Part shown: piece by piece, positions 10,250-25,968 of the stretch | How positions within the stretch are numbered: the stretch's first letter is position 1 | How the letters are laid out: each line of letters begins with the position of its first letter | From: an uncultured Syntrophobacter sp. | GTDB lineage: Bacteria > Desulfobacterota > Syntrophobacteria > Syntrophobacterales > Syntrophobacteraceae | DNA: 32,000 nucleotides | Direction of reading: 5' to 3' | Assembly (NCBI GenBank): GCA_964539645.1 | Contig: CAZIJV010000030.1 | Span: 3,200 to 35,199, forward strand | The notes under the pieces: model-generated | Databases searched by the model: none | Seen by the model: only the letters and a program-made list of their open reading frames with translations | Told to the model about the DNA's origin: nothing | Program-made: the position numbers and the translations under genes

Positions 10250-11803
10250 TCAGGCGAGCATCGCCTCGATCAGGCTCGGACCGGGTTCGGCAATCGCGCG
10301 TGCAAGCGCCTCAGAGAACCCGGCGTCAGTATTCACGCTGCAGGCGGGTACGCCAAATCCTTTGGCCAGTTGAACCCAGTCTACAGGCGGGCGCGTGAGA
10401 TCCGTCAGGGCCTGCGCCTTTGGGCCTGGCCGTGCTATTCCGGCGCGTGCAAGCTCGATCTGAAGAATGCGGTAGCGGCGATTGGCGCATATTACTACGG
10501 TCACATCCGCGCCCTCGCGCGCCATGGACCAGAGCGCCTGTGGCGTGTAGAGAGCGCTCCCGTCCGCCTGGAAAGCGATAACCCGGCGCTCCGGACATGC
10601 GACAGCGGCCCCGAGCGCCAGGGGCAGCCCGTGGCCCATTGAGCCGCCCGTCAGATTGAGTATGGTATGGGGTGCGGCGCTGAAAGAATACCGGCTGTTC
10701 CAGGCGGAACCGGAGGTGACCGCGTCGTTCACTACTATTGCGTTCTCCGGGGTGAACGCCGCCAACGTACGGCCCAAGTTATCCGGATCGAGCGGTTGAT
10801 CGCCTGGAGGGAATGCAAGGTGCGGGGCAGAAGACGGAGAGAGCGGCGGCGCACGCAATTCATCGGCCAGTATCTCGAGCGCCAGGGCCGCATCGATGTC
10901 ATCATCCGGATCTGCGAGGGTATGCAGCCTTGCCCCCTCCGGGAGGAGTCGTGAAGGCTGACCGGGATATCCGAAAAAAGAGATCGGCTCGTCCGCGCCC
11001 GTCAACACCAGCGCCTCGATGTCTGAAAGCGCCTCACGCGCCTGCTCGGGGAAATAGGGCAGGGAGGGAAACGCGGGCAGGTGACGCCCTCGCTCCTGGC
11101 GTGAAGGAAACGTCTCCAGCCAGACCGTGCAGCCCGTAGCGGCGGCCGTCCGGGCGGCTGCAGTAAGTCCTCGGCCGCTCAGGGCATTGCCGCCGAGCAA
11201 CAGCCCGCACCGTCCGGTTCGCAGCAACCGCGCCGCTTCCAGAAGTGTCGAAGAAGGAGGTTCTCGCAATACCGGGGCGGAGCGGACGGAAAGGGGCTCG
11301 GGTCCCTGTTCCCATTGGCAGTCAGCGGGAATTATCAGCGAAGCTACGCGTCCCGGCGGGCCGAAGGCCGCCTCGACCGCTGCGAGGCTTGCCTCCGCCA
11401 TCTCGTGCACGGACTTCACGGATCTCGTCCAGCCCACGGTTCCGCTGAGCGCTTTTATATCGGAGGTAAGCGGCGCATCGAATCCGAGGTGTGCGGTTGC
11501 ATGATCGCCGATCCAGTTGACAATGGGAGTGCGGGCGCGTCGTGCGTTGTGCAGATTTGCCAGGCCGTTGGCGAGCCCCGGGCCGAGGTGAAACAGAGTC
11601 GCCGCGGGACGGCCGGCCATGCGTGCCCACCCGTCTGCGGCGCCTGCGCAGACGCCCTCGAATAACCCGAGTACGACCCGCATTCCCTGGACACCGTCCA
11701 GCGCAGCGACAATCGGCAGTTCCGTAGTTCCGGGATTTGCAAAGCACACCTCTACGCCTGCGTTCATTGCGGTGCTCACCAGACTGAATGCGCCTGTTCT
11801 CAT
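10250..11803 (-). CDS. Thiamine-diphosphate-dependent enzyme, acetolactate synthase large-subunit-like family
   Basis: The N-terminal ThDP pyrimidine-binding domain motif (VCFANPGTTELPIV) is present. The C-terminal ThDP-binding motif GSMGHGLPLALGAAVA...ADGSALYTPQALWSMAREG...VVICANRRY is also present. I chose the ATG at 11803 (GGAGGAGAG upstream) over the longer ORF start at 11842. Substrate specificity cannot be inferred. Confidence 0.85.
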   Translation of the reverse strand: MRTGAFSLVSTAMNAGVEVCFANPGTTELPIVAALDGVQGMRVVLGLFEGVCAGAADGWARMAGRPAATLFHLGPGLANGLANLHNARRARTPIVNWIGDHATAHLGFDAPLTSDIKALSGTVGWTRSVKSVHEMAEASLAAVEAAFGPPGRVASLIIPADCQWEQGPEPLSVRSAPVLREPPSSTLLEAARLLRTGRCGLLLGGNALSGRGLTAAARTAAATGCTVWLETFPSRQERGRHLPAFPSLPYFPEQAREALSDIEALVLTGADEPISFFGYPGQPSRLLPEGARLHTLADPDDDIDAALALEILADELRAPPLSPSSAPHLAFPPGDQPLDPDNLGRTLAAFTPENAIVVNDAVTSGSAWNSRYSFSAAPHTILNLTGGSMGHGLPLALGAAVACPERRVIAFQADGSALYTPQALWSMAREGADVTVVICANRRYRILQIELARAGIARPGPKAQALTDLTRPPVDWVQLAKGFGVPACSVNTDAGFSEALARAIAEPGPSLIEAMLA

Positions 11804-12013
11804 GGTGATCTCTCTCCTCCTGTTTATGAACTTGATTATCATGTCCGGGAAGGATTACAACCTTCTTGAGGGAAAAAAGCTCTCATGGAGTTCGAAAAGA
11901 CAATGAAATAATCCCGATTCGTGTTGTATAAAAACTCATGTCCCGACCTCCGGCGCCGCCGGAGGTGTCTGACTCTTTCCATGGCGCCGACTCTCCGGGA
12001 GCAAAAGGAGCTT

Positions 12014-12523
12014 ATGATGTCTGAGCCCAAAGAAATATTCGTCCGGCTGGATAAATGTATGGGATGCCATTCGTGTGAGTTGGCGTGTGCGGTTGCACAT
12101 TCGTCCTGCCGCTCTCTTTACGGGGCTGTAAACGAGCATCCCCTGCCTAAACCGCGTGTCTACGTGGAAGCGGCAGCATCCCGAAAACCGGCGCCCATCC
12201 TCTGCCGACACTGTGAAGACGCGCCCTGTATGCACGCCTGCATCGCGGGCGCTATCCGGCGCACGGAAAAAGGAGTGGTGCTGACGCAGAGCGAGAAGTG
12301 CATCGGCTGCTGGACCTGCGTGATGGTGTGTCCTTATGGAGTCATCGGCAGGCACATCGAAGAGCACAAAGCATACCGCTGCGACCGCTGCCCGGACCGG
12401 GAAATGCCCGCCTGCGTTGAGGCCTGTCCCACCAGGGCGTTGGTTTACCGGAGTGTAAAAGACTTTTCGAAAGAGACGCGCCGAAGCGCTTCCGCCGGGA
12501 TGCTTGGAGCGCAGGGGGAATAG
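12014..12523 (+). CDS. 4Fe-4S dicluster ferredoxin-domain protein (DmsB/HybA-like)
   Basis: Multiple CxxCxxCxxxC(P)-type motifs are present: CMGCHSCELAC, CRHCEDAPCMHAC, CIGCWTCVMVCP and CDRC...CVEACP. I chose the ATG at 12014, with AAGGAG at 12005-12010. Confidence 0.85.
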   Translation: MMSEPKEIFVRLDKCMGCHSCELACAVAHSSCRSLYGAVNEHPLPKPRVYVEAAASRKPAPILCRHCEDAPCMHACIAGAIRRTEKGVVLTQSEKCIGCWTCVMVCPYGVIGRHIEEHKAYRCDRCPDREMPACVEACPTRALVYRSVKDFSKETRRSASAGMLGAQGE

Positions 12524-12525
12524 AC

Positions 12526-13779
12526 GTGGCACAGAGTGAAAAGCGCTATGTCATAGTGGGCGCCAGCGCGGCCGGCATGGCGGCTGCCGCGGCCATACGC
12601 GCAATCGACAGGCGCGGAACGGTCACCGTACTCTCCAATGAACCCGATCCGCCCTATTTCAGGCCGTTGATTCCCTTCCTGATCAGCGGAAAGAAAAAAG
12701 CGGCGGATATGGCGTTGACGGGGCAGGGGCCATATTCCGGCGACGGTATTGATGTCCGGATCAACTCGGGGGCCAGGAGAATCGAGCCCGGGGCGCAAAT
12801 TGTGGAGACCGCCGGCGGGGAGCGCCTCTCCTATGACCGGCTGCTTATTGCAACGGGCAGCAGTCCCTACATTCCGCCGGAGATCGAAGGGACCGGGACC
12901 GACGGCGTATATGCCCTGCGAACCCTTGCCGATGCCAGGGCCGCGGAAAGGCGCGTTGGGCAGTCGCGCCATGCCGTTATGCTGGGCGGCGGCATGTTGA
13001 ACCTCAAAGCGTCCTTTGCCCTGCTGGAGCGCGGGCTCAAAGTCACCATGATCGTCAAATCGCCCCAGGTGCTCTCTCAGTTGATGGAACCGGAGGATGC
13101 CGCCCTGATACGGGATGCGCTGAACAATGCAGGATTGAAGATAGAAACCGGCGCCGCTGCCCGCCGTATTCTATCGAACGGCAGGGGAGTAGACGGAGTC
13201 CTGCTCGACGACGGACGCACGATCCCCTGCGAGATGGTATGCATAGGAAAAGGGGTGCGGCCGAACGTTTCCTTCATCGACACGAAAGACATTAGAGTCG
13301 ACGGCGGAGTTGTCGCGGACCGGTACACGGCGTGCGGTGCGGTCAACGTCTTCGCTGCCGGAGATGTCGCCGTAACCTTCGACCCCATCACCGGCGGGCG
13401 CATAGTCACGGGCCTTTGGACCAACGCCGTGGAGATGGGCAAATGCGCCGGCGCCAACATGGCAGGCAGGCCGACGGAATACGGCGGCACGTTCGGCATC
13501 CTGAACGCGACACAGGTGGCGGACGTCGCCTTCGTCTCCATGGGAATCGCGCACACAACCGGACGCGACTATGAAGTCCATGTGGCCGCCTCGCGCAATG
13601 CCTACCGCAAAACGGTCTTTTCTCCCGACGGCGCCCGCCTGGTGGGGGTTTTGCTGGTGGGAGACATTTCCAGGGCCGGGCTGTACCGCTGCCTGATACG
13701 GGACAGGATGCCGATCTCGAGCATTAAATCGAACATCATCGATCATACCCTGCACTACGGGCATTTTATGTGCCGTTAG
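12526..13779 (+). CDS. FAD-dependent pyridine-nucleotide-disulfide-family oxidoreductase
   Basis: The GTG start lies 2 nt after the ferredoxin stop. The N-terminal dinucleotide fold is YVIVGASAAGMAAAAAI. A second Rossmann motif (AVMLGGGMLNLK) and the FAAGDVA FAD motif are present. The gene is probably co-translated with the upstream ferredoxin as a two-subunit redox enzyme. Confidence 0.85.
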   Translation: MAQSEKRYVIVGASAAGMAAAAAIRAIDRRGTVTVLSNEPDPPYFRPLIPFLISGKKKAADMALTGQGPYSGDGIDVRINSGARRIEPGAQIVETAGGERLSYDRLLIATGSSPYIPPEIEGTGTDGVYALRTLADARAAERRVGQSRHAVMLGGGMLNLKASFALLERGLKVTMIVKSPQVLSQLMEPEDAALIRDALNNAGLKIETGAAARRILSNGRGVDGVLLDDGRTIPCEMVCIGKGVRPNVSFIDTKDIRVDGGVVADRYTACGAVNVFAAGDVAVTFDPITGGRIVTGLWTNAVEMGKCAGANMAGRPTEYGGTFGILNATQVADVAFVSMGIAHTTGRDYEVHVAASRNAYRKTVFSPDGARLVGVLLVGDISRAGLYRCLIRDRMPISSIKSNIIDHTLHYGHFMCR

Positions 13780-13978
13780 GTAACGGTCTCTGATGGCAGG
13801 CCCGGGGGCGCATACCACCCGATGACTCTGATCGGTAGTGCGAAAACCGAAGGGTTTGGAAAGCTGATTGGCGGAGTGCAAAAATGTGAAGTTTCGCTTG
13901 GGTCTGAGGCTGTAATAGTATGATTTGGATCTTTTGAGCAAAAAGACAGGCCCGTGCATGAATACATAGGAGAGGTAT
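13657..13978 (+). repeat. Copy A of the repeated segment: the functional 3' end of the oxidoreductase gene plus about 200 nt of downstream tail
   Basis: 13657-13698 is identical to 17794-17835 (42/42 nt by eye). Further shared blocks are GGTAGTGCGAAAACC (13834-13848 = 17972-17986) and CTTTTGAGCAAAAAGACAG (13931-13949 versus about 18195-18213). Weaker protein-level similarity extends back to about 13546. Confidence 0.8.
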
Positions 13979-14092
13979 GTGAACTTTTCAGGGCTTGCTT
14001 ACTGACCCTACAGTGTCAAGCTCGGCGGCCGAGGGCCTTACACCATATGACACTGGGCGGTTCTGTCGTCGCCGGCTTGCCTGAGTTGGAGT

Positions 14093-14455
14093 TTATACCC
14101 ATTTCATTTCATCAAAGTTTCTGAAAGATCCTCCACACGGGCACTCTGTGGAGACATCTTCATATTTCGTCGTGCCGCATTTTGGACAGATAACGATACG
14201 GGGTTGTTTCACAAATTTGCAGTAGAGCAGTCCAAAAACAAAGCCACAAAGCAAAGACCAAGGCAGACGATGAAGAAGCTCATCGGTAGGCACAAGAGAC
14301 TGACCGCGGAGCATCGCCTCTCTCCATCCATATACGAGTAGAGTCATAAGACCTACCAAGAACCCGACAAATGCCGCGGCAAGAGCATGTCCCACACGGC
14401 GCTTCAATTTTTGCTTTACAAGCTCTTCCGGTGTTCTTTCTACCCACATATACAC
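14093..14455 (-). CDS. Small membrane protein with a C-terminal zinc ribbon (2 predicted TM helices plus CPKCG...CPCGG)
   Basis: The ORF is 120 aa. Hydrophobic segments are ALAAAFVGFLVGLMTLLVYGW and WSLLCGFVFGLLY. The C-terminus carries ICPKCGTTKYEDVSTECPCGG. It is co-directional with the TIR operon. Confidence 0.55.
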   Translation of the reverse strand: MYMWVERTPEELVKQKLKRRVGHALAAAFVGFLVGLMTLLVYGWREAMLRGQSLVPTDELLHRLPWSLLCGFVFGLLYCKFVKQPRIVICPKCGTTKYEDVSTECPCGGSFRNFDEMKWV

Positions 14456-14822
14456 GAATATCTCACCCAGTTGATGGCCCGGACATCTGTATTCGCTGAC
14501 TGGGACCGCAGGACAGGGGAATTCCTGCCTCTGGCTGCCCCTCTTGCCTATGACACTGGCGACAAAAAACCTATTGCCAGTGCCACTCGCGCATGCACAG
14601 CTTGTGTACCTACTCCTTTGCGATCATTTGCAGCTTAATCTTGCCGCCTGAAAACATCCCGCCTGCATCATCAGAAGCCACGTATCCCTTGCGTTCCTGA
14701 GCCAGATAGGGGTGGGCGCACACGGCTTTCGTGCCCACCGGCTTTCCATAATCTAGTGCATATTGGTGGGCATTGTGATACTTAGGCACACCCTTGGCTA
14801 TACGGGTCCCACGCTCCGCAGC

Positions 14823-16076
14823 TCAAGTGCAACGACCCTGAATAAAGTTGCCGACGATGTCCTCATAAATTGACTCGGCTGGTTCAAAAAAATCGAACAT
14901 TACGAATAGCGGATTCATCAATTCACGAGTCTTTTCCACCACACCACGATCCGACAATGGATGTTCGAACTGGATCGCACGTCCACAAGAATCCGCAGAA
15001 GCTTTGCTTTCCTGCCACATTATTCTACTTGGATTCGAGGTTGATAATTTGCGTCCCTTGATCCCTGAGTGACGAATCCGAAGCTGAACGGTCGCACCAT
15101 TCTGGACGCCTAGGTTAGTATACAGATTTCTACAATAAAGGAGCGCTTCTGCCGTTTGTACAATACGCGTATTAAAGAAAATAGCGTTGGGGTCCCTATC
15201 ATTCTCGAAGAGGTTTCGAGCGAGATAGAAATCTCCGTTCAGACGCAAAGCCCAATAATCAAATGACTCATGTTGGGTAAATCGGCTGGCTATCCTCGCA
15301 ACAATTCCATCTTCATCTGGAGTTGGCTTGCCATTATCCACGTGCAAAACGGCACCAATTGGCCAACCAAACGTCTTAATTTCCGAACGCTCAGCGACGT
15401 TTAGTAGCATTCGATGATCACTCCTCAATGAATCGGTTGAAGCACCGAACTCAACCTCCATGAAGGCGCCTCGGCGTTGCACCTCCGACATCGCTTCTGA
15501 TTGGTGTCTATGGAACCATTCATCTGCGAAGACGTCACGAACAGGGGATGAGATATAGGGATTTGTACCAAGCGGGGGTTTTGGGTTAAACGGTGCCTCG
15601 TGGAGCACGCGGGTTAGCTTTTCAAGATTACGGGAATAGTCCGCATCCACTTCAAAGTCGATATACATCTTGGTTTGAAGAAATGGAGGGAGCGTCTTAC
15701 TGGGATTATTCCTCAATATAGGGATAAACTTTACCACACCGCGATTCTGAAGGATCTCAGCTGTAACCAGCATCGTCTCATAACCGACTCCCCCCTTGCC
15801 CGCTACAGCCTTCTGAACGTAGTTCGCAGAACACACGATCACAACACGATCTACCGATGCCAAATGTTCCATAAACCTGGCAACATCATCTCCAGGCTTG
15901 AGGTCCCATACATCGAGAACCGCGTCAACACCTTTATTCCGGAGCTCGCTTGCAAGATGGAGAACCCAGTTCTTGTGATCGGCTGAATCATGTGAGTACG
16001 AAATAAAAACTCTCGGTGCCTGGGGCCGTGCTCGTAACGCATCGAGTTGTTCTTTTCCACTAATTCTGTCGCTCAT
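14823..16076 (-). CDS. TIR/SEFIR (STIR-superfamily) domain protein with a C-terminal domain of about 250 aa and unknown function
   Basis: The N-terminal roughly 160 aa match the bacterial TIR layout. VFISYSHDSADHKNWVLHLASELRNKGVDAVLDVWDLKPGDDVARFMEHL covers beta-A, alpha-A, beta-B and the BB-loop. VVIVCSANYVQKAVAGKGGVGYE follows, with a conserved Glu in the position of the NADase catalytic residue. GGAGAGG lies within the last codons of the upstream gene, about 9 nt before the ATG. Confidence 0.8.
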   Translation of the reverse strand: MSDRISGKEQLDALRARPQAPRVFISYSHDSADHKNWVLHLASELRNKGVDAVLDVWDLKPGDDVARFMEHLASVDRVVIVCSANYVQKAVAGKGGVGYETMLVTAEILQNRGVVKFIPILRNNPSKTLPPFLQTKMYIDFEVDADYSRNLEKLTRVLHEAPFNPKPPLGTNPYISSPVRDVFADEWFHRHQSEAMSEVQRRGAFMEVEFGASTDSLRSDHRMLLNVAERSEIKTFGWPIGAVLHVDNGKPTPDEDGIVARIASRFTQHESFDYWALRLNGDFYLARNLFENDRDPNAIFFNTRIVQTAEALLYCRNLYTNLGVQNGATVQLRIRHSGIKGRKLSTSNPSRIMWQESKASADSCGRAIQFEHPLSDRGVVEKTRELMNPLFVMFDFFEPAESIYEDIVGNFIQGRCT

Positions 16077-16079
16077 TGT

Positions 16080-16580
16080 TTAGGCCCTCTCCAATTCGAT
16101 GACATCAAAAAGCTCCGTGGGCAATTCTTCGATGACATACTCCGGTGATAGAGGATGCGCCCGTTTCGGCACCGGAACTTCCTTGAGCAGGTGAGAAACG
16201 CCTACAAAAGGAATCAAATAAAGAAGCGGACGAAAATCCGCACATTCTGCGGCGGCGGCAATTTCCTCAATTTTGCGTAACTCATCATCCGTGATGATAC
16301 CGGCACTGTGCTTATTCTGTGCGCCGTCGATTAGACTCGATCTGTTGCCAGTAATCTTGGTGCTGTGACCGTCACGACGACGAACCTCTTCAGCCAGGCT
16401 GTGATAGATATCTGAAGGACAGGAGGTCGGCGGCGGAGTGGCATGGTATCCCGGATGGTTTCGAGCGCTGAATACCGGAGAGCACCAGACATAGTGCACG
16501 CCTCCATAATAGAGAACGGAGATATTATACGCTAGCCAGGTGTTCACTGAATAGAGGAGGTTGTGCTTTTTAGGGTTCAT
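16080..16580 (-). CDS. Hypothetical protein (166 aa), translationally coupled partner of the TIR-domain gene
   Basis: The stop codon TAA (16080-16082) lies 3 nt from the TIR gene ATG (16076). I recognised no family. The composition is protein-like (WLAYNISVLYYGGVHYVWCSP...IITDDELRKIEEIAAAAE). Confidence 0.65.
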   Translation of the reverse strand: MNPKKHNLLYSVNTWLAYNISVLYYGGVHYVWCSPVFSARNHPGYHATPPPTSCPSDIYHSLAEEVRRRDGHSTKITGNRSSLIDGAQNKHSAGIITDDELRKIEEIAAAAECADFRPLLYLIPFVGVSHLLKEVPVPKRAHPLSPEYVIEELPTELFDVIELERA

Positions 16581-16974
16581 CGCAGGTTATTCTCAGCAAT
16601 ATCTTTTAAAATAAATGCAAAGCGAGAGCATCCGCATAAATGCGCGATAACCGGCGCTCGGACTAGAACTTCAAAAAAACTTCATTCAGCTTGCAGACAT
16701 TAAACCCTTTGGGCAGGATAAAGGCATGTCGCCATAGGATCAACCGGTAATTTCGCTTAATGCAGAACTTGCCACAAGGCCGAACCTGCAGCCTCCCTCC
16801 GTCTCAACAATGTATGATCTGAAACTGGAAATTTTTCAAGCCCTCGAGTTTTTGAAGTCCTGATCCATTCCAGCAGGAAATCCTCTATGGAAGCCGGGCT
16901 GAGATCAGTCGAAAGTAACTTGGATATGACCTCCAGAATGATCCGCCACAAAATATTGGGGATGAGATTGCAAT

Positions 16975-17571
16975 TCAGGCTGGATTGGCAGCCATCCAGG
17001 TTTCAATGTCTCGAATCAAGGCGTTCATGAGCTTTTTGGCGGCTTTGGATTTGCCTTCAACCGCGTTTGTCGTCACAGTCTCCCAATACGAGGCGCCCTC
17101 ATGGGAGTCAATGTGGTATGTATTCCCGTACACTTTTTCCTTCGCTCTTATCTCAATGGCAACATCCAGGGTATATCGCTGGTTGCCGGGAAAATGATGG
17201 GTTTGGGCAAACAGGATTCGGATCCTCAAGTCAGGATCAGTATTTTGCTCAGGAGCCGCCACTCTCAGCAATCCAAGCCTATTCAGTTCATTTGCCAATG
17301 ATGAAATGAAAATCTTCTGGTCTGCCTTGCCAAAGTGCAATTCAGGGTACGGTCCGGAGGAAATCGGAACGGCAAGAACGGTGCTTCCGGCGATGATTGG
17401 CATCATCCCGACTCCGCTTGATCCGCCCACCGCCCCTCCGAGCAGCTCAATGGTCGCCGTCTTTGAAGATGTCACCAGCACGGGTTTGTCGTATGATGGA
17501 GGCGCCAGCCGGAGATCTCTGGCGCAGCCGGTCGACATTGCAATGCAGATCAAAAGCGGTATTATTTTCAT
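16975..17571 (-). CDS. Putative lipoprotein (198 aa)
   Basis: I chose the internal ATG at 17571, which gives MKIIPLLICIAMSTGC. This is a signal peptide with a lipobox-like STGC cysteine. I recognised no family for the mature part. Confidence 0.6.
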   Translation of the reverse strand: MKIIPLLICIAMSTGCARDLRLAPPSYDKPVLVTSSKTATIELLGGAVGGSSGVGMMPIIAGSTVLAVPISSGPYPELHFGKADQKIFISSLANELNRLGLLRVAAPEQNTDPDLRIRILFAQTHHFPGNQRYTLDVAIEIRAKEKVYGNTYHIDSHEGASYWETVTTNAVEGKSKAAKKLMNALIRDIETWMAANPA

Positions 17572-17662
17572 GGTATTCTTCCGACTATGTAGCTGATTTG
17601 AGGTTCGCGGATCTTTGCTGAGCTGAGTTCTACCCCAGTAATGGCTCAACGGCAAGCATCAA

Positions 17663-18230
17663 TCGCGGGCGGCCCCGGCAACGGGGACTATGTTGCCGGG
17701 GCCCGAAGGACAAGGGGAATGAGCAATTGTCAATCATTCCGTTGTCCCTCTTGTCTCCGGCACGGGCAACAAAACCCGCTGCCAGTCTCACCCGTGGGAG
17801 ACATTTCCAGGGCCGGGCTGTACCGCTGCCTGATAAGGACAAGATGCCGATCTAGGATATAAAAGGAAGCATCATCTGTCATTGCGTGCGTTACGGACAT
17901 TTTATGCGCCGTTAGCAATGGCGCGTGGTGGCTGCCCCGGAGGCGCATGTCGCCCGATGACACGAGGCACAGGTAGTGCGAAAACCAAGGGATCTAGAAA
18001 GCTGAATGGCGCCTAAGGCCAAAGGCAAAAAATGGATATCCTGAAAAGGTTGAATCCTGAGCTTTTGAAGGAGCGGCTTCCAACCTCTCCGACAAGGCAG
18101 TTCGTGAAGCCCGGATAAGCATTATTTGGCATCGGCCTAAGTGTAAGAATTCAGAACTGCGCTTGGGTCTGAGCTGTAATGGTATGATCTAAATCTTTTG
18201 AGCAAAAAGACAGATCCATAGGAGAGATAC
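17663..18230 (+). pseudogene. Copy B: non-functional remnant of an oxidoreductase 3' end (last ~75 codons) plus its downstream tail
   Basis: The translation IAGGPGNGDYVAG...PVGDISRAGLYRCLIR aligns to the gene's IAHTTGRDYEVHV...LVGDISRAGLYRCLIRD. There is a 42-nt exact match to 13657-13698. The tail blocks are shared with 13780-13978. A roughly 124-nt extra segment (18018-18141) is absent from copy A. The remnant has no start codon and no upstream gene body. Confidence 0.75.
17747..17796. repeat. Hairpin element, degenerate copy (B)
   Basis: CCCTCTTGTCTCCGGCACGGGCAACAAAACCCGCTGCCAGTCTCACCCGT aligns to the elements at 21245-21296 and 22206-22256. The stem is eroded in this copy. Confidence 0.6.
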
Positions 18231-18327
18231 AGAAATCAGTTCATCTGATTAGTTGCCGAATGTGTCGAGAGTAGCCCCCTACTCCTTACCCTGTCCTTGG
18301 ATTAGTGGTGAATTGATGGCGGTTCGG

Positions 18328-19467
18328 TTACTTCTTGCGGCCATTTCTCCCGCTTAATTTTGCCCAGCTGTAACGGACTGGGTCCAGCGCAAGAAGATGG
18401 TTGCATAAATCTATTTTCTTGGTTTTTTCGGCCCGCATGAAAATGCTACGCAATTCATCATCCACTGACTCTTCGGTAAAACCTCGTTCGACAGCTTTTT
18501 CATACCAGGTTCGTCCCAGTTCATGATTACCGATTTCATAATTCACAGCACCCAACAGCGTGCAGGGACGGAAATCCTGCGGCGTTAGCAGGTGAGCTTG
18601 CTCGCCCAGACTTAATGCATCATCTAATTTCCCCAAATCTCTTTTCGCACCGCCATGCGTCGTGCAAATCGCGGACTTCAGCTTCACATTCTTTAAACCA
18701 GACAAATGAATCATACTTAACATCGTATCCGCAGTCTTCGATTCCCCGCACTTGCGATAATGGCTGCTTGCGTTGACTGCAAACCAATGATCTTTGGATT
18801 TTTCAAACTCACCTGCATAATAATCGGCCTCGTTCCTATGGTAGCGTTTTCTTAATGCGGGAGTGCAATAATCTTTACCTTCTGTCTTAAGCCAAACAAC
18901 CTCATCCTCGGATAGCCGAACCCTATTATCCACGCGTCTCAGAATTTTCATGAGAGTTGGAAAGTGGTACCTTTCGATAAAATCATACAGGTCATATTTG
19001 TGCCTCAGCTCTATTTGCAACAATCTTGCTATATTTCTTGGATCATTATCGAAAGCACGCTTTTCTGCTGCCCATCGTTCTTGTATTTGCCTTTGTCTAG
19101 CTTGCATGACCTCATCTTTCAACTTCTGCTCGGCTTGTTCTTTAAGAGCCCTGGCCTCAGCAGCAAGACAACGCTCGGATTGCTCTGATTTTGCCTCCTT
19201 CAAAAAATTTGAAAAGGTGAATTTTCCTCTTGCGTAACTGAGGAGTGCCAGAAGCCCCTTGTTGTGTAAGAATTCTAGGGCTGCACCAGAGATCCGATCT
19301 CCCAAGTCCAACTGCTTCAGTATATTGGACAGGCGGCTAAAAGGGATTAACGCGCCAGGCAGATCGTCAACACAATACTTGATTGCCGCTTCGGCAGGTG
19401 AGAGTTCCGTTGATGAAACGTTTAGCTTCTGAGGACCATCGTCGCGATCTCTGGTTTGGTTTCTCAT
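18328..19467 (-). CDS. Hypothetical protein with a central coiled-coil and a C-terminal TPR/Sel1-like helical repeat region (379 aa)
   Basis: The ORF is long and sits in an AT-rich block. The charged heptad-like stretch is EARALKEQAEQKLKDEVMQARQRQIQERWAAEKRAF. C-terminal helical repeats are present (...NHELGRTWYEKAVERGF...). I recognised no catalytic motif. Confidence 0.6.
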   Translation of the reverse strand: MRNQTRDRDDGPQKLNVSSTELSPAEAAIKYCVDDLPGALIPFSRLSNILKQLDLGDRISGAALEFLHNKGLLALLSYARGKFTFSNFLKEAKSEQSERCLAAEARALKEQAEQKLKDEVMQARQRQIQERWAAEKRAFDNDPRNIARLLQIELRHKYDLYDFIERYHFPTLMKILRRVDNRVRLSEDEVVWLKTEGKDYCTPALRKRYHRNEADYYAGEFEKSKDHWFAVNASSHYRKCGESKTADTMLSMIHLSGLKNVKLKSAICTTHGGAKRDLGKLDDALSLGEQAHLLTPQDFRPCTLLGAVNYEIGNHELGRTWYEKAVERGFTEESVDDELRSIFMRAEKTKKIDLCNHLLALDPVRYSWAKLSGRNGRKK

Positions 19468-19693
19468 ATAAGACTTTCGATCAGATCGTCGTCAATCAAT
19501 CAGTGCAATGCAGATGCGATTCTTCAGCCGGAACAGGTAGGGCTGGTCTGTTGGAGCTTGATGAGGACCAACTTTTCCCATCGTCCTGATTTCGCAATTT
19601 TATTTTATGCCTAAGGTCTCTACAAGGATATTCGGTCAAGTGTGAGCATAAGATGAACAGAAACCGTTAACCTTCTGATTTTTATCTTCTTTG

Positions 19694-19891
19694 TCACTGA
19701 AAGGCGCCAAGCCCTTTAAAATCCTGCCAAGAATCTCTGATGTTGCTATACCTTGTCAATAACTGAATTCCGAAATGACTCTTGTGATAGAGGTAATCTT
19801 CTCCGCTCTCATCGACAATTCTCAGGAGATCATCGGTTGCTGCCGCCTCATCCGGGATGATTTCGTATATCTTTCTCAAAATCAAACTCAA
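19694..19891 (-). CDS. Small hypothetical protein (65 aa) with an IPDE...VDESGEDYLY motif
   Basis: The core KIYEIIPDEAAATDDLLRIVDESGEDYLYHKSHF resembles a widespread family of small (~60-aa) uncharacterised proteins that I remember but cannot name. The only start is a TTG immediately after a stop codon, so the N-terminus may be truncated. Confidence 0.35.
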   Translation of the reverse strand: MSLILRKIYEIIPDEAAATDDLLRIVDESGEDYLYHKSHFGIQLLTRYSNIRDSWQDFKGLGAFQ

Positions 19892-20048
19892 CTAACCTGA
19901 TGTTTCCATTGGGCAGTCGTACATGGACTCTCAACCACTCAGCGTTACCTCTGAAAAATCAGCGACACAAAGGCCACCAGGAGGATAGTGAATCCATACG
20001 GTTAAGCACGAGTTTTCGAGACGGGGAGAACCAAAGTCTCCGCGTCGA

Positions 20049-20447
20049 ATGCGCTTATTTGTGGATCAACTGAAGATCTGCGAGGGTGAAGATCCGGAGC
20101 ATCTCTTTGGGCCGGAATTGCTTCCCCTCATTGTAATGCGCCTGCCTTCCAATCCCGGCAGAGTCATGCTAAATTGGATAGAAGATGGTAGTGATGCATC
20201 CGATTTGGAGGCCTTCATGAGAAAAGAGAGAATAGAGTACGGCTCATCAGTTGATGCTCTGGTTGTCGTGGCTAAGCGCCTGAGCGTTTACGAAAATCGA
20301 TACGGAATGACTTCTGAAGATTTCTATGACAAATACCGGAGAGGCCGGATAGAGGATTCGGTAGATTTCGTCGAATGGGCCAACGAGTACCAACACTTTG
20401 TGACCATTCGGCTCGAAATAGAGAAGCACATTAGCCATGTTGCCTGA
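20049..20447 (+). CDS. Hypothetical protein, possible antitoxin-like partner of the downstream truncated toxin remnant
   Basis: The ORF is 132 aa. Its C-terminal part (RLSVYENRYGMTSEDFYDKYRRGRIEDSVDFVEWANEYQ) resembles small helical proteins found upstream of DUF6516-type genes. Its stop TGA overlaps the ATG of the next ORF (TGATG). The true start may be an internal Met. Confidence 0.45.
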   Translation: MRLFVDQLKICEGEDPEHLFGPELLPLIVMRLPSNPGRVMLNWIEDGSDASDLEAFMRKERIEYGSSVDALVVVAKRLSVYENRYGMTSEDFYDKYRRGRIEDSVDFVEWANEYQHFVTIRLEIEKHISHVA

Positions 20448-20614
20448 TGCACTGCGCGATATTCCGCTACGATAACACTCCACACTTTTCCGGGTTGGAG
20501 CATTTCCCTCACCATAAACATTCGGAGAGGGGAGTCACGGACTGCGAAAGGCCATCCATTCCTGAAGTAGTCGAAGAGACAAGGCGGTATTCCGACGGAA
20601 AGCTTATGGTGTGA
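20447..20614 (+). pseudogene. Truncated DUF6516/TumE-like toxin remnant (55 codons, C-terminal half only)
   Basis: My hand translation from ATG 20447 is MHCAIFRYDNTPHFSGLEHFPHHKHSERGVTDCERPSIPEVVEETRRYSDGKLMV*. The RYDNxPH...FPHHKH signature is what I remember for the DUF6516 (TumE) family. Those proteins are normally about twice this length, so the N-terminal half appears to be missing. Confidence 0.55.
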
Positions 20615-20769
20615 GGTGTTTGACTCCTGTTGATCTCAGTGCTTTGTCGGCTGGACAACACCCGTCAAGTTCAGCGAGAGTCAGCTTTACCTGCCGGAAC
20701 CGGGAATTCCGAGGAAGCGAAAAACCTTCGCAATGATTCGGGAATGGAGTCTATCCACCAGCCAAAGGA

Positions 20770-21063
20770 TCAGGGGGAATCATCCTCGAAGGTTGTACCG
20801 AGGGACAGACCGGCCTGTTTTATCGTATCCTTGATAACACTTAACGATATATTGGTCAGATATGCATACTTAGCTGCCAGGCCCAGTAGTGTTGACCTGG
20901 ACTCCTGACGTGTGCCTCTGGACTTTCGATTTGCCTCGGCATCTTGAGCACGATGTATTTTGACCATAAGACACGCCAGTTCGTACAGGTCGTTCTCATA
21001 TAGGACCGAGATGCCTATGAGGGCGCTTGCCTTTATTCTCTCGTCATGATGTGGCGTCTTCAT
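20770..21063 (-). CDS. Hypothetical protein (97 aa)
   Basis: This is an ORF only. The C-terminal LLGLAAKYAYLTNISLSVIKDTIKQAG is vaguely helix-turn-helix-like. It competes with the overlapping plus-strand ORF 20630-20908. Confidence 0.3.
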   Translation of the reverse strand: MKTPHHDERIKASALIGISVLYENDLYELACLMVKIHRAQDAEANRKSRGTRQESRSTLLGLAAKYAYLTNISLSVIKDTIKQAGLSLGTTFEDDSP

Positions 21064-21173
21064 GTTATCAGATATGATCCCCTATGTGTGCTGTTCAGGA
21101 TTGGTAATTCCTCCGACTCATGCAGACCGAATGCCCGGCAAGCGGGCTGCGCCAGGCGCTCCGAGTTCGCACG

Positions 21174-21355
21174 TCGCGGGCGCCCGGGCAGCGGCTATTG
21201 GCTGTCTGTGTCCGAAGGACAGAGGATGTTTCCACAACTGCCAACCCCTCTTGCTTCCGCACGGGCAACGGAAAAGCCGTTGCCCGTGTCACCCGTTGAC
21301 ATTGCTTTCCAGCGAAGGTATGTTTTCATTGTGCCTCAATTTCCGACAAGGAGGA
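21174..21355 (+). repeat. Copy D: partial degenerate copy of the oxidoreductase 3'-end segment, including the best-preserved hairpin element
   Basis: 21174-21260 aligns to 17663-17761 (TCGCGGGCG..CCCGAAGGACA..CCCTCTTGCTTCCGCACGGGCAAC). 21289-21355 aligns loosely to 13657-13713 (TCACCCGTTGACATTGCTTTCCAGCGAAGG versus GTGGGAGACATTTCCAGGGCCGGG). The copy ends exactly where the antitoxin gene starts. Confidence 0.55.
21245..21296. repeat. Hairpin element, best copy (D): 12-bp perfect stem
   Basis: CACGGGCAACGG (21260-21271) and CCGTTGCCCGTG (21277-21288) are exact reverse complements, with loop AAAAG. The flanks CCCCTCTTGCTTCCG and TCACCCGT are shared with the other copies. Confidence 0.8.
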
Positions 21356-21358
21356 CCC

Positions 21359-21574
21359 ATGACCGAACTGCTCAAGAAAGCTTTTGAGGCTATCTCAAAG
21401 CTTCCCCCGGAGAGCCAGGATGCCATAGCGGCAAGAATGCTCATGGAATTGGAGGATGAAAGCCGCTGGGATAAAGCCTTTGCCGGATCACAGGACAAGT
21501 TGGCGCGGATGGCTGATGAGGCCATAGCTGAGTTCAAGGTCGGTAAAACAATTCCCCTTGAAGACATCTTATGA
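21359..21574 (+). CDS. Type II antitoxin, ParD/RelB-like addiction-module antidote (71 aa)
   Basis: MTELLKKAFEAISKLPPESQDAIAARMLMELEDESRWDKAFAGSQDKLARMADEAIAEFKVGKTIPL matches the common KLPxExQDxIAxxxLxELEDExxWDxxFxxSQDKLxxLAxEA antitoxin pattern found upstream of RelE/ParE toxins. AAGGAGGA lies at 21348-21355. The stop overlaps the next ATG (ATGA). Confidence 0.75.
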   Translation: MTELLKKAFEAISKLPPESQDAIAARMLMELEDESRWDKAFAGSQDKLARMADEAIAEFKVGKTIPLEDIL

Positions 21575-21720
21575 TTTCGAGTGTAACCTCCGGATTTCGG
21601 AAAGTTTATCGACATAATCCTCTCTCAACTTTAAAATGCCCTCTGGCGCCCTGGCCTATCCTTACAGACAAAAGCCTGTCAAATGAGCGGCTACTTCAAA
21701 TCCGGCAGTTCGTCCCGTGA
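21571..21720 (+). pseudogene. Truncated RelE/ParE-like toxin remnant (49 codons)
   Basis: The hand translation is MISSVTSGFRKVYRHNPLSTLKCPLAPWPILTDKSLSNERLLQIRQFVP*. Only the first ~15 residues (SGFRKVYRH) resemble a RelE/ParE N-terminus (F-R/K-K-x-Y-K/R-K/H-L). The rest is unrelated and overlaps the 3' end of the convergent gene at 21691-21900. Confidence 0.4.
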
Positions 21721-21900
21721 GAGTAGCAACTTCATGCTCCGGGGTTCATTGGGCTTCTTCGCTATGAATCCCTTCTTATCGAGCTGAACGACCATATTGC
21801 GTACACTGGGCGGCGTAGTATGAAAATAGCTCTGTATGTCAGCTTCGACCGGCGGCCGGCAGTCATCCCTTGTGCCTGCTACATTCGGTAATATGATCAT
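21691..21900 (-). CDS. LexA/MarR-like winged-helix DNA-binding protein fragment (69 aa), possibly frameshifted
   Basis: RPPVEADIQSYFHTTPPSVRNMVVQLDKKGFIAKKPNEPRSMKLLLSRDELPDLK matches the GRPPAEADIQxYFxVTPPSVHxMxxxLExKGxIxRxPGxxRSIxLL pattern of small LexA-N-terminal-like regulators. The usual N-terminal helix is missing in this frame. Confidence 0.5.
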   Translation of the reverse strand: MIILPNVAGTRDDCRPPVEADIQSYFHTTPPSVRNMVVQLDKKGFIAKKPNEPRSMKLLLSRDELPDLK

Positions 21901-22195
21901 TGTTTATGAGGTGCTGCACTTCCTTCCTGTCTTTAAAGATGCTGATGTGCGGTATCTTATGTTTGGTTCTTTTCCAGCGGCTCATTTTTTCGAAGTCCAT
22001 CAGGATAGTTTTGCCCGTCGTATCGTCATCAACGATGAATATGGGCCGTCCACTCCATTTTATGCCGGGAAACAAGCTGTGGTCCTGAAGAGGATGCTGG
22101 GAAGGAAGAATTTCTTTAATCTGAGCAAGCAAATCGTCTATATATTCAGACCACACCATTTCCCATGGCCACTTGATCTCAAGAATGTCTTTCAT
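21863..22195 (-). CDS. Hypothetical protein (110 aa), overlapping the wHTH ORF by 38 nt in another frame
   Basis: I chose the internal ATG at 22195 because the longer ORF (to 22336) would read through hairpin element E. The C-terminal KEVQHLINNDHIT resembles the KQGQYLAFIYNYT helix expected upstream of the wHTH fragment. This suggests one gene split by a frameshift. Confidence 0.4.
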   Translation of the reverse strand: MKDILEIKWPWEMVWSEYIDDLLAQIKEILPSQHPLQDHSLFPGIKWSGRPIFIVDDDTTGKTILMDFEKMSRWKRTKHKIPHISIFKDRKEVQHLINNDHITECSRHKG

Positions 22196-22205
22196 AAATG
22201 CCCAA

Positions 22206-22256
22206 TCCCCCCTGCCGCCGCACGGGCAACGAAAAAGCCGTTGCCCGTGCCACCCT
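22206..22256. repeat. Hairpin element copy (E): 11-bp perfect stem
   Basis: CACGGGCAACG (22221-22231) and CGTTGCCCGTG (22239-22249) are exact reverse complements. The flanks CCCCCCTGCCGCCG and CCACCC are similar to those of copy D. Confidence 0.75.
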
Positions 22257-22361
22257 TCAGGATGCAGCCACTTCCATAAATGCATAGTGTATATTGATTC
22301 GAGCCGAAATAGCAACTTTGTTGCTGCTCCCTCCATCCGTGTCCATCACCGTTCATCCGTG

Positions 22362-22490
22362 TCTTGAAATTGCCTTGCTGTACGACAATCATATCCAAAA
22401 CCACCGGCTTTTCATGTGCAGTCAGCAACGGTCCCTGACGCAGACCCTGCCGGGGGGGCGCATACCACGGAATGATCCGAATCAGGGACT
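22362..22490 (+). repeat. Copy C: degenerate copy of the distal part of the oxidoreductase 3' end (last ~20 codons, stop, and about 60 nt of tail)
   Basis: CTTGAAATTGCCTTGCTGTACGACAATCATATCCAAAACCACCGGCTTTTCATGTGCAGTCAGCAACGGTCCCTGACGCAGACCCTGCCGGGGGGGCGCATACCACGGAATGATCCGAATCAGG aligns to 13716-13836. At protein level, EIALLYDNHIQNHRLFMCS aligns to SIKSNIIDHTLHYGHFMCR. GGCGCATACCAC is shared. Confidence 0.65.
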
Positions 22491-22502: not shown

Positions 22503-25500
22503 TTATTCGAAGAGCACCCCTTGCATCAGGGTAGCGTCCTTGCCGGCGCTCAGTCTGCTCCAGCCGGGGTTGGAGTAGAGATAGAGTCCCTTATCGGGAA
22601 TAACGGCTGCAAGCTTCCCGCCGTATATGGCGATCCTGTCGGGATTATAGGGGGTGATCGTCTTCCAGGCTTTTTTCTCGTACCTCGCGATTCCCTGTGC
22701 TCCACGGTCGATGTAGAGCGTGAACCGGGTGGAGGCAAAGCCTTCCGCCGAAGGATTCGAGGAGATCCTTGTCCAGGAGTTGTTCCTGTAGAGGTAAATC
22801 CCCGGGGTTGAGGCCGAGTCGATAGAAGCGGCAAGAGTTTTGCCGAAGGCGTGCATGAGACCCGGGTTTCGAGTGGTGATTCTCACCCATGAGCCGTCAT
22901 AGCGGTAGATGCCTCTTTTTCCGAAATCCACGAAGAGCCTTTTCTCGATACCCACCATCTGCTCGGCGCCGGTCCAGGAACTGATTCTTTTCCACTCAGA
23001 CCCGTCGTACATCCAGAGGCCGATTTCGGGAAAGTTGGCCACGAGCTTTTCACCGCAGGCCGCCATCATGGTGGGGTTGGAAGTGTGGATCTTGGTCCAG
23101 CCTCCCTTATACCGGTATACTCCTTTGGCTCCCGCATCCACATAGAGCGAGTCGCCAATGCCCAGAACCGACTCGGTGGACTTCAACGAAGTGAGCTTTT
23201 CCCAAGCCGATCCATCGTGCAGGTAGAGTCCCAGCTCAGGGAAGCTCACCACCAGCCTGTCACCCCAGGTGGACAGCACGTTCGGGTGTTGCGAGCTGAT
23301 CTTTTTTCGGCTTCCATCCCAGAGCTGCAGCCTCTCGGAGGGGAAATCGACCGCGAGGGCAGGGCGCCCCTTCCATTTGGCTATGCGGCTGGAAGGTTTT
23401 CCGCCCGCCGTGCTGAAAGATCCCCCGGCGTAGATGTTTCCGCCAACATCCGCGGCAAGGGCCAAGACGGCGTCATTCATCCCGGAGCCAAGAGCAGACC
23501 ACTCCCTGCCATTCCATTTGGCGATTCTGTTCGCTGCCACTCCGCCAATCTCTGTAAAGTACCCCGCGGCATAAAGATTGCCAATTTCGTCGGCGGCAAG
23601 TGCGCTGAGGTCGTGAGTTCCCCGTGCAATATTGAACCAGGCGGTTCCATCCCATCTGTAAATATTTGAACCAGTCGCCATTGAGTAGGCAGTGGCACAA
23701 TAGAGATTTCCGCGCCCGTCCACGGCAAGGGCGAGAACACTACGGTTGGCGCCTTTTCCCAAAGCAGACCATTCAGTCCCGTTCCATTTTGCGATATGGT
23801 TTGCCGGCGTGTCGCCTGCCCTGGTAAAATCGCCCCCGGCGTAGAGATTTCCGCTCCCATCCACAGCCAGGGCATAGACACTGCCATCGAGACCTTTCCC
23901 TAGCGCAGACCATTCAGTGCCGTTCCACTTGGCAATGTGGAGTGCGGGTTTACCGCCTGCCATGGTGAAATCTCCGCCGGTATATAGAGTTCCCCTCCCG
24001 TCCACAGCAAGGGCATTGATGCGGTGGTTGGCGCCTTCTCCCAGAGCAGACCATTCGCTACCGTCCCATTTAGCAATGTGATTGACTGACTTGCCCCCGG
24101 CAGATGTAAGCCATCCGGCTGCATACAGGTTCCCGTCGGGATGTGCCGCGAGCGCCAGGACACCATCATCAACTCCCGATCCGAGGGGCGACCATGCACT
24201 TCCGTTCCATTTCGCTATGTTTTGCGTGGATGCATTACCGGCAATGTCGAAACAACCGGCGGCATAGAGCATTTCTCCGGCGTCGAGGGTAATTGCAGCG
24301 ACATGAGAATCGGAGTTGTCGTTGTTGATGACCCCTGAGCCACCACCAACAGAGGTCCATTCACCGCCATTCCATTTTGCAAAATTGTTTGCTGTAATCC
24401 CTCCCATACGGGAGAAATATCCTCCTGCATAGAGGCTCCCCTGCCGATCGATGCTAATGGCTGCAACGCTATCGTTAAAAGATTCGTAGGTGATTCCCGA
24501 GCCAAGGGAAGACCACTCGCTGCCGTTCCATCTGGCTATACCGCTTGCCGCCACCCGGCCTTCAGTAATGAATCGTCCCCCCACGAAAAGATTTCCAAAA
24601 CTATCCGTTTTAAGAGCCCAGACACGATCATTTTCACCGCCGCTGATTCCGGGTCCAAGTGGAGCCCATCCTCTGCCGTTCCATTTAGCCAGGTTTTTTG
24701 CCGCTACTCCGCCTGCCGTGGTGAAATGTCCTCCGGCATAGATATTCCCGGCCACATCAATGGCGATGGAGTTGACATCATCATTCGTACCCGATGAAAT
24801 AGCAGACCAACATGATCCATTCCACCTGGCTATGTTCCCAGCTTCTATTCCCCCCGCGGTGGAGAAGCGCCCTCCGGCATACAGATTTCCACTCTGATCG
24901 ATTGCGAGGGCACGGACAAAGGGGAGATAGAAAGCGCCTATAGGACCTATTCCGGAACCAAGAGCAGACCACTTCGCGCCGTCCCATTTGGCTATAGAGT
25001 GTGCCGCGACCTCACCTGCGATGGTGAAATGTCCACCAGCGTAGAGGTTTCCCGCTTCATCCACTGTCAAGCCATAAACCCCTCCAGGTGTATAATGACC
25101 AAATTCAGGCTCCCGCCTTACTCCATTTCCGAGAGCAACCCACTCAACGCCATTCCATTTAGCGATGTTGTTTGCCGGGACTCCCCCCGCAAATGCGAAC
25201 AGTCCACCGGCATAGAGATTTCCCTTTCCATCCAAGGCAAGAGACCAGACAGGGCCGTCCATTCCGGACCCGAGAGGAGACCATCTGCTACCGTCCCATT
25301 TGGCGATATGGTTTACCATGACCCCCCCGGCGGTGATGAATGGTCCCCCGGCATAAACGTTACCCTGTGCATCCGTAACAAGGGTATTGATTCCGTATTC
25401 TATTCCGCTCGGATAGAAGTTTTCAGCCCACCGCACATCACCGGCAACAGCCTCCACCTCAACCCCCGGCGCTTCGTCGGAGGCGATTTGCACTTCGACC

Positions 25501-25586: not shown

Positions 25587-25968
25587 GAGCGGTGACTCCT
25601 TGTGATCGGACACACATATTGCAGAAAATACATGGAAAGTGAGCCTTTGGCATAAACAGGCATAATGGCGGAACAATACCAGTAGCTATAGCTGACCTTT
25701 TTGATTAGGTTGAATAGCATCGGTCACGGAGTCTGTCAAATGCATTGCGCCTAAATGGCCACTGCGGCTATCGCCATCTGGAACAAGTGGATGCGCTTTG
25801 GGATTGGAAAAGAATGGAAAGAGCCGGTGGGCATTGAAGTTTATGCCCACCCTGCGTGCATTGCTGGTCAATAAATATCTGAGTGCATTGAGTATTTGAG
25901 TGTAGTTATCCGGGACTTTTCACGAATTGCCTGAGAATCAAATCAAATGGAACTGTCGCCACTTTGTC

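Follow-up and report, generated by a model that had tools for sequence, protein, structure and literature searches.

Displaced oxidoreductase gene ends in a tract of defence and toxin-antitoxin genes of an uncultured Syntrophobacter sp.

We analyzed a 32,000-nucleotide (nt) stretch of DNA from an uncultured Syntrophobacter sp. (GenBank assembly GCA_964539645.1, contig CAZIJV010000030.1, positions 3,200 to 35,199; hereafter, the window), in which 8.7 kb of defence and toxin-antitoxin genes follow the 3' end of a gene for a FAD/NAD(P)-dependent pyridine nucleotide-disulphide oxidoreductase. By sequence comparison, this tract is an insertion at the oxidoreductase gene end. The target gene lies at 12526 to 13779 on the plus strand, is intact, and encodes a protein of 417 amino acids (aa; Pfam Pyr_redox_2, E 7e-47). 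On the right, the tract is bordered by a conserved flank, a minus-strand gene for a beta-propeller repeat protein (22503 to 25676; Pfam Rax2, Reg_prop, and SBBP). The GC content of the tract is 0.49, compared with 0.57 upstream and 0.54 in the downstream flank; the spot counts from which an initial annotation of this DNA had called the tract AT-richer, 22/60 at 18961 to 19020 and 43/60 at 12541 to 12600, were exact.

The 3' region of the oxidoreductase gene was compared with the whole window by BLASTN, and similarities were further expressed as z-scores of the local alignment against shuffled sequence. Two additional copies of the gene end were found, both of them oriented as the gene is and keeping its register. 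The functional end (copy A) matches copy B in two blocks, 13657-13873 with 17794-18011 (79% over 222 nt, E 1e-44) and 13895-13949 with 18160-18213 (91%, E 2e-15), and it matches copy C at 13742-13818 with 22388-22468 (73%, E 1e-6). The z-scores equal 79 and 17.9, respectively, and any other match to the gene 3' region was at noise level. The initial annotation had counted four or more gene-end copies; A, B, and C are real, the A-B similarity lying far beyond chance, and the fourth, copy D (21174 to 21355), is excluded, since its z-score against the gene is -0.5 to 0 and it belongs to the hairpin repeat described below. The proposal that a single copy was split into D and C is unsupported. The left part of copy B as first drawn (17663 to 17793) is likewise hairpin repeat instead of gene end (z 0.2), so the A-B homology begins at 13657, not at 13546.

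At its left edge, this homology consists of an exact 42-nt run, 13657-13698 in A and 17794-17835 in B, which had been reported before and extends not one base further leftward. We refer to this region as the core. Core copy A (13657 to 13701, plus strand) agrees with core B at 44 of 45 positions, marks the left edge of all A/B homology, and is a candidate crossover region. Beyond it, identity is 78% over the remaining 26 codons, 66% in a stretch resembling a 3' untranslated region (UTR), and 88% and 82% in two further tail blocks; the homology outside the core thus amounts to 66 to 88% and runs rightward only. The conservation of the core exceeds that of the rest of the repeat (44/45 versus 78%, P about 2e-4).

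In the alignment, copy A (13657 to 13949, plus strand) starts with the core, continues through the last 26 codons and some 55 nt of native-like 3' UTR, and closes with a tail of about 115 nt (13834-13949, e.g., ATCTTTTGAGCAAAAAGACAG). Copy B (17794 to 18213, plus strand; BLASTN and alignment) is decayed. It contains its core (17794-17838), a pseudo-coding sequence to 17915 with one frame change and one in-frame stop, the UTR, and the tail, which is split by a 127-nt insertion (18012-18139). Copy C (22388 to 22475, plus strand; BLASTN, z-score, and alignment) retains the last 38 nt or so of the coding sequence (CDS) and the native-like UTR, has neither core nor tail, and abuts the beta-propeller gene; the sequence before it (22256-22387) is unrelated. 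Copy C probably represents the original end of the gene after its displacement. The last part of the CDS and the UTR of about 55 nt are common to A, B, C, and the native end of a related locus described below (L084). The tail is present in A and B only (82 to 88% identity) and is absent from both C and L084, which argues for two incoming DNAs with the same left-end module of core, replacement gene end, UTR, and tail.

A long palindromic repeat, TAGGAGCGGCTTCCAGCCGCGA...TCGCGGCTGGAAGCCGCTCCTA, lies between genes of a related metagenome-assembled genome (MAG; L011, 3587-3657), and part of it shows 83% similarity to the sequence inserted into the tail of copy B. To judge from this similarity, the two probably represent a second small repeat family. 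No tRNA, tmRNA, or known RNA family was found at the repeats. A diversity-generating retroelement, with template and variable repeats, was considered and rejected. No reverse transcriptase was found in profile searches of the window's open reading frames (ORFs) and four gaps, and there is no adenine bias: of the 31 substitutions that separate copies A and B, just 7 and 9 have an adenine in one or the other copy, every type of substitution is represented, and indels are present. That the A/B homology runs beyond the oxidoreductase stop codon also bears against such an element.

The exact oxidoreductase protein is known from this organism alone, the next closest protein being 83% identical. Its orthologues are likewise 417 aa long and always have a 4Fe-4S gene on their 5' side, as in the window. 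Across 81 related loci, this Fer4-oxidoreductase gene pair is the sole syntenic part. In none of the 81 does the oxidoreductase gene have a duplicate of its own end within 10 kb, and the tail and the hairpin repeat are absent from all of them. In L084, a Syntrophobacteraceae MAG (83% aa identity), just 71 nt separate the oxidoreductase gene from a convergent gene for a beta-propeller repeat protein, which belongs to the family of the gene at 22503-25676. From its gene order, L084 is an empty site, with no insertion between the two genes, and thus provides the arrangement that the initial annotation had predicted, the oxidoreductase gene abutting the repeat-protein gene. The identity of copy A to the orthologues is flat across the core (0.78 to 0.84), with the full 417-aa frame kept and no step change in divergence seen at that point. 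Copy B is 85% identical to A, compared with at most 75% to any orthologue.

The beta-propeller genes themselves are repetitive. At least four paralogues lie in a row downstream of the L084 oxidoreductase gene (11325-21254), the first directly after it, with 54 to 70% aa identity to the single copy in the window. That copy contains internal 141-nt repeats at 23431-23982.

Pieces of the tract are reproduced in four independent datasets (SRR10812145, ERZ925065, ERR14064717, and JGI 3300010351). Where these contigs were compared by BLAST, they are 100% identical to the window, apart from one mismatch in L086. Contigs assembled from short reads end inside both cores: L087 corresponds to window positions 13669-17823, and L090 and L091 start at 17806. 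Such breaks are to be expected at an exact repeat of 42 nt.

To the extent that profile searches reach, the tract encodes no tyrosine or serine recombinase and no transposase, as had been noted at the outset. All sizeable ORFs were searched against Pfam, ORFs were also searched against NCBIfam, PADLOC, and PHROGs, and four larger unannotated gaps were scanned with Pfam in six frames. No integrase, resolvase, transposase, relaxase, or excisionase was found in the tract ORFs or in these gaps, and PHROGs disclosed no hidden recombinase among the ORFs without a family match. No enzyme of these classes was found in the 4 kb beyond the right end of the window either, and HUH and DEDD enzymes are absent from both the window and these 4 kb. 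In total, the analysis covers about 36 kb of this genome.

The stretches at 17663-17793 and 21174-21355, together with 14477-14589 and 22182-22255, are copies of one separate repeat; the first two match each other with a z-score of 17.7. It is a multi-hairpin element of about 65 to 130 nt with the conserved unit CCCCTCTTGCCTNCGG-CACGGGCAAC-(4 to 9 nt)-GTTGCCCGTG-TCACCC(G), in which a stem of 10 to 12 bp is kept with one compensatory pair and the loop varies from 4 to 9 nt. Full copies have two extra stem-loops upstream, formed by a weaker inverted unit that precedes the strong one. By reading, the repeat ends are terminal inverted repeats (CGGGTG...CACCCG), and no target-site duplication was seen at the copies. 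All four tract copies lie on the plus strand. Copy 1 (14477 to 14589; covariance model score, 71.8 bits) is the most diverged, its palindrome arms beginning at 14554. Copy 2 (17663 to 17794; 73.4 bits; fold z-score, -2.5) is a full inverted doublet with three stem-loops, whose inverted partner at 17663-17730 scores 36.6 bits. Copy 3 (21182 to 21296; 80.5 bits; fold z-score, -4.6) corresponds to the former copy D, and copy 4 (22182 to 22255; 73.4 bits; fold z-score, -4.9) is a single unit whose 5' part overlaps the start of a 110-aa ORF.

The covariance model was built from six hairpin copies and run over 1.46 Mb of DNA. It matched the four tract copies, two unrelated metagenome contigs (L082 and L083), and positions 108-236 of L085, a Logan contig, and found no copy in 80 loci from related genomes. 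Apart from copy 2, the inverted partner is matched at 108-174 of L085 and 672-732 of L083. The L085 copy, which has three hairpins and lies near the contig end, is a fifth copy from the same genome, situated about 4 kb beyond the right end of the window, about 13.5 kb outside the tract, and some 45 nt past the stop codon of a core cytochrome-b-type gene (Ni_hydr_CYTB type). A copy outside the tract and none in related loci argue for a dispersed, lineage-restricted element resembling a REPIN (a doublet of repetitive extragenic palindromic [REP] sequences) or a miniature inverted-repeat transposable element (MITE), which is how its sequence places it, rather than for an island-specific arm. For the same reason, the hairpin-marked partitions at 14.5, 21.2, and 22.2 kb do not prove separate integrations. 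Four of the five known copies nevertheless lie in the tract, which makes up 24% of the known sequence (P 0.014).

Copy 2 ends at 17794, the base with which core B starts. When the sequence directly after each hairpin was tested for a decayed core by an anchored comparison, copies 1, 3, and 4 gave p values of 0.045, 0.37, and 0.58, none of them significant, and B alone was positive. All hairpin copies have the same orientation and could bracket cargo (14477...17794 and 21182...22255), and a conserved target motif on their left flank is not evident. Rfam holds no match to the repeat, which is an undescribed family. Searches with the hairpin, the tail, or the B junction gave no match in viral contigs or plasmids, and one metagenome scan returned two short contigs only. 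A protein-coding role is excluded, as loop indels of 0 to 3 nt break any frame. The repeat is not an intrinsic terminator either: there is no T-run on either strand, and it does not appear in the terminator scan.

One of the two metagenome matches, L082 (Ga0124853_1398377), is island-like over positions 1-1914, where a tRNA-Thr gene is followed, in this order, by DUF433/PIN-like toxin-antitoxin genes with frameshifts, a 3' fragment that resembles a tRNA but is not called by ARAGORN, and the hairpin. By reading, this hairpin is followed directly by the apparent 3' half of a hicA-like gene, its terminal TCACCC being joined to GTGGGGCATCCC.

The cargo occupies both strands. Nearest to copy A lies a minus-strand gene for a 120-aa membrane protein with a C-terminal zinc ribbon (14093 to 14455; weak Pfam and NCBIfam matches), followed by a two-gene bSEFIR defence module on the same strand (14823 to 16580; PADLOC bSEFIR, E 1e-68; Pfam TIR_2 and SEFIR), which consists of a 417-aa SEFIR/TIR protein (14823-16076) and a 166-aa partner (16080-16580). 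The zinc-ribbon protein has a 78% homologue in an unrelated context (L092), with DNA homology confined to 14077-14466. The bSEFIR gene pair recurs in unrelated contexts in L093 to L096, with a partner of 164 to 177 aa. Nucleotide homology between these genomes (71 to 80%) stops at 14812 and at 16571-16584, within about 10 nt of where the two genes end, so that they act together as a compact, portable module. The homologues of the bSEFIR pair and of the 120-aa gene elsewhere have no hairpin and no tail beside them. In the window and in L093, L094, L095, and L096 alike, the bSEFIR gene is always paired with this upstream gene of 164 to 177 aa, which has no family match. In Desulfosarcina ovata (L096), the pair has a tyrosine recombinase gene together with an IS91-type Y2 transposase gene on one side and a Y1 transposase gene on the other. 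L092 carries a different hairpin-forming repeat of about 100 nt twice (about 640-740 and 1040-1140). Both copies lie upstream of a small ORF, a layout reminiscent of cassettes, and one of the two precedes the homologue of the zinc-ribbon protein gene.

Further along, a 226-aa ORF (16975 to 17655, minus strand) has no match in Pfam, PADLOC, NCBIfam, or PHROGs and is probably a lipoprotein, given its start, MKIIPLL...C. To the right of copy B, a 379-aa protein (18328 to 19467, minus strand) gives a weak C-terminal tetratricopeptide repeat (TPR) signal in Pfam, and a sequence search of the PDB returned TPR only. The segment at 20049 to 20614 (plus strand; NCBIfam, PADLOC PDC-M44A/B, and Pfam TumE) encodes the antitoxin TumA (ORF residues 57-132; NCBIfam, 4.5e-33) and then the C-terminal third of the toxin TumE (2.2e-14, profile positions 81-121 of 122). 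The first 56 aa of the TumA ORF form an N-terminal extension without a match, and the TumE remnant (residues ~81-121) is joined to this ORF by overlapping stop and start codons. The order and truncation of the two suggest a rearranged tumE-tumA pair. A 71-aa ORF at 21359-21574, previously labelled ParD-like, has no match in Pfam, NCBIfam, PADLOC, or PHROGs; a good sigma-70-like promoter (TTGACA-17-TATGTT, 21296-21324) lies directly at the end of hairpin copy 3 and faces this ORF. Two small minus-strand ORFs complete the tract (21691 to 22195; profile searches), a 69-aa winged-helix fragment that is weakly LexA-N/MarR-like and the 110-aa ORF, which has no assigned function.

We propose, with moderate confidence, that at least two related integrative elements inserted site-specifically at the oxidoreductase gene 3' end, successively or in tandem, and that the result is a decayed mosaic island without an integrase, similar to the cis-mobilizable elements (CIMEs) discussed below. 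The position of the core at the left edge, with homology only to its right, corresponds to the attL/attR geometry of elements that replace a gene 3' end. Unit I (13657-17838) is bounded by the exact 42-nt core and about 290 nt of extended homology, and unit II is bounded by B and by the core-less C. As only two ends, B and C, are displaced, the data support at least two events. The initial view of repeated insertion at a conserved gene 3' end, in which replacement ends push older ends downstream, is thus upheld by the intact A, the decayed B, and the empty site, with fewer copies than it had assumed.

Under this proposal, the incoming elements would have been circular and would have entered within the last 123 nt of the oxidoreductase gene. 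Their attachment site would have consisted of the core of 42 to 45 nt, the replacement last 26 codons with the 3' UTR, and the element-specific tail of about 115 nt. Recombination at the core would join the 5' part of the chromosomal gene to the replacement end of the element, leaving the gene intact, and the previous end would be moved downstream, where it would decay; B would have been displaced last, and C would be the original end. The integrating enzyme, which we infer from this arrangement, was most likely a site-specific tyrosine-type integrase. Recombinase genes may have been lost since or never carried, leaving att-like repeats around cargo without integration genes. The bSEFIR pair, the TumA/TumE debris, and the small ORFs would then represent modules that also occur in unrelated contexts elsewhere, and the hairpin repeat may have colonised the noncoding DNA of the island or taken part in junction formation.

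Several observations weigh against this proposal. No integrase, excisionase, or remnant of either was found in the ORFs and the four six-frame gaps, a scan that left out short stretches around A, B, C, and the hairpin at 14.5 kb, and searches of viral, metagenome, plasmid, and genome sequences yielded no intact relative of the element. Copy C has no core, so use of the same site by the older event cannot be shown. Immediately to the left of core B lies a dispersed repeat instead of element-specific DNA, which leaves no obvious room for a core-type binding site there. No alternative junction, such as an excised site or a circle, was seen in the contigs from the four samples, among which the short-read contigs broken at the cores could not show one. 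Finally, the closest comparison genome shares 83% protein identity, which places the comparison above strain level.

The junction at core B could also point to the hairpin itself. A folded-DNA enzyme encoded in trans, for instance an HUH Y1/Y2 transposase (RAYT, IS200/IS605, or IS91 type), an IS110/Piv-type enzyme, or an integron-like recombinase, would join hairpin-ended cargo to GTG(GG) at the gene end, so that the tract would be an array of cassettes, each with its own hairpin, and the solo hairpins elsewhere would be empty units. This is consistent with the last base of the repeat being the first base of the core, where A/B homology starts, and with the L082 repeat, which by reading ends in TCACCC and runs straight into GTGGG at the apparent hicA-like 3' half. 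The variable loop on a kept stem with a compensatory pair is easier to reconcile with a folded single strand than with a dimer site in duplex DNA, the missing target-site duplication resembles HUH elements, the copies are concentrated in the tract, unlike classical REPs (PMC3390384), and the D. ovata bSEFIR pair is flanked by an integrase plus IS91 Y2 transposase pair and by a Y1 transposase. We nonetheless regard this mechanism as unlikely. Hairpin systems do not duplicate 290 nt of their target, and the shared tail would go unexplained; three of the four tract hairpins have no gene-end sequence after them, the bSEFIR and 120-aa gene modules occur elsewhere without the hairpin, no HUH or DEDD enzyme lies in the window or the adjoining 4 kb, and the palindrome is unlike attC. 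A bolder version, which we consider quite improbable, is that the units are working mini-islands without an integrase, whose defence and toxin-antitoxin cargo is shuffled in trans by an unlinked recombinase that recognises the folded hairpin. The attachment module of each unit would then be divided between its two sides, one bearing the multi-hairpin element and the other the core together with the replacement end and tail. In effect, the 3' end of a housekeeping gene would anchor a cassette system like that of integrons, with solo hairpins as empty or alternative docking sites.

The remaining alternatives dispense with a site-specific enzyme. Incoming DNA with a portable oxidoreductase gene end could have entered by a RecA-dependent single crossover that duplicated the homologous segment, and this could have happened repeatedly. 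With about 180 nt of gene-derived sequence plus the tail, the repeat is long enough for RecA, no recombinase appears in the profile searches, and the 85% identity of B to A, versus at most 75% to orthologues, indicates that the copies come from this lineage. Yet an exact 42-nt block at the extreme left edge, followed by 66 to 88% identity, resembles a defined crossover core instead of a random point, homologous recombination is inefficient between segments only 78% identical, and it would be unexplained why unrelated cargo DNAs share the gene end and tail, unless a family of elements uses them as an attachment site; we therefore hold the RecA route to be improbable. Very doubtful, in our estimation, is a single old island or local segmental duplication that was later rearranged by deletions, insertions, and repeat-mediated recombination, with the gene ends as by-products. 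The heavy decay fits such a history (truncated TumE, fused TumA, pseudo gene end, the 127-nt insertion in the tail of B, and the core missing at C), as do the dispersed repeats, which could mediate rearrangements. Against it, B and C both keep the orientation and register of the gene, the oxidoreductase frame is restored exactly by the proximal copy, an exact boundary core is unexpected from random rearrangement, and no such duplication occurs in the 81 related loci.

Integration at the gene 3' end, the reading that we favour, has close counterparts. CIMEs are units without integration genes that keep their att sites and build up in tandem by accretion, as exemplified by elements related to the integrative and conjugative elements (ICEs) ICESt1 and ICESt3 at the fda 3' end in Streptococcus thermophilus (PMC5704250). 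Like them, the tract targets the 3' end of a protein gene, has direct repeats that include the gene end, and is made of tandem units with adaptive cargo that carry no integration or transfer genes and keep att-like repeats (PMC5704250). It differs from these examples in its target gene and its Syntrophobacteraceae-like host, in showing neither an integrase-bearing partner, whether an ICE or an integrative and mobilizable element (IME), nor remnants of conjugation or integration genes, and in having a long replacement end with a conserved tail and a dispersed hairpin repeat at its junctions.

The ssrA islands of Dehalococcoides offer a second comparison. They form a series of displaced gene ends at a tmRNA gene, delimited by a 20-bp repeat with an element-derived motif just upstream of each copy; the serine recombinase DsiB is present in 16 islands, and 15 lack an integration module (PMC3146451). 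As in that system, the units studied here stand in tandem downstream of one gene, are delimited by copies of its 3' end, have a lower GC content, and are without an integration module, as many of those islands are; in both cases we count a conserved element-derived motif immediately upstream of the repeat. Unlike the ssrA islands, the target here is a protein gene, the repeat spans about 290 nt, of which 42 nt form the core, and a recombinase was not seen.

The hairpin repeat shares with REP/REPIN sequences its short, palindromic, intergenic nature, the inverted partner of its strong copies, the lack of a target-site duplication, and its apparent restriction to one lineage. It is palindromic, dispersed, and arranged in inverted doublets, and of its five copies in about 36 kb, one lies beside a core gene beyond the tract. 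In contrast to REPs, its unit is longer (65 to 130 nt with three stem-loops), only five copies are known, and the roughly 36 kb covered contain no known gene for a REP-associated tyrosine transposase (RAYT). Classical Pseudomonas REPs avoid recently acquired DNA, in which the present repeat is enriched, and REPs and REPINs are mobilised by RAYT transposases (PMC3390384). The tract also resembles integron arrays and clusters of attC sites lacking integron integrases (CALINs) in that small, promoter-poor cargo units are separated by hairpin repeats, and, as in CALINs, there is no integrase nearby. Integron attC sites are 57 to 141 nt long, carry R''/R' boxes of the form RYYYAAC/GTTRRRY as well as L boxes, and lie 3' of co-oriented ORFs. 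The hairpin was rejected as an attC site on size and box structure: its palindrome is about 29 nt, with GGGCAAC/GTTGCCC beside the loop and no L boxes. Unlike in integrons, the ORFs of the tract lie on both strands with hairpins 5' of minus-strand ORFs, and sequence of the target gene end is duplicated, which integrons never do.

Taken together, the island has left a footprint of a familiar kind, and the target gene is new. The practical value of the locus is modest, in that the missing integrase-bearing element can be sought with probes made from the 42-nt core and the tail, and the locus would be much more interesting if the hairpin were indeed a recombination site. For this uncultured, syntrophic deltaproteobacterial lineage, the 3' end of a Fer4-linked FAD oxidoreductase gene adds a protein-gene target to the integration hotspots that collect defence genes and provides a clean example of an insertion history recorded in displaced gene ends.

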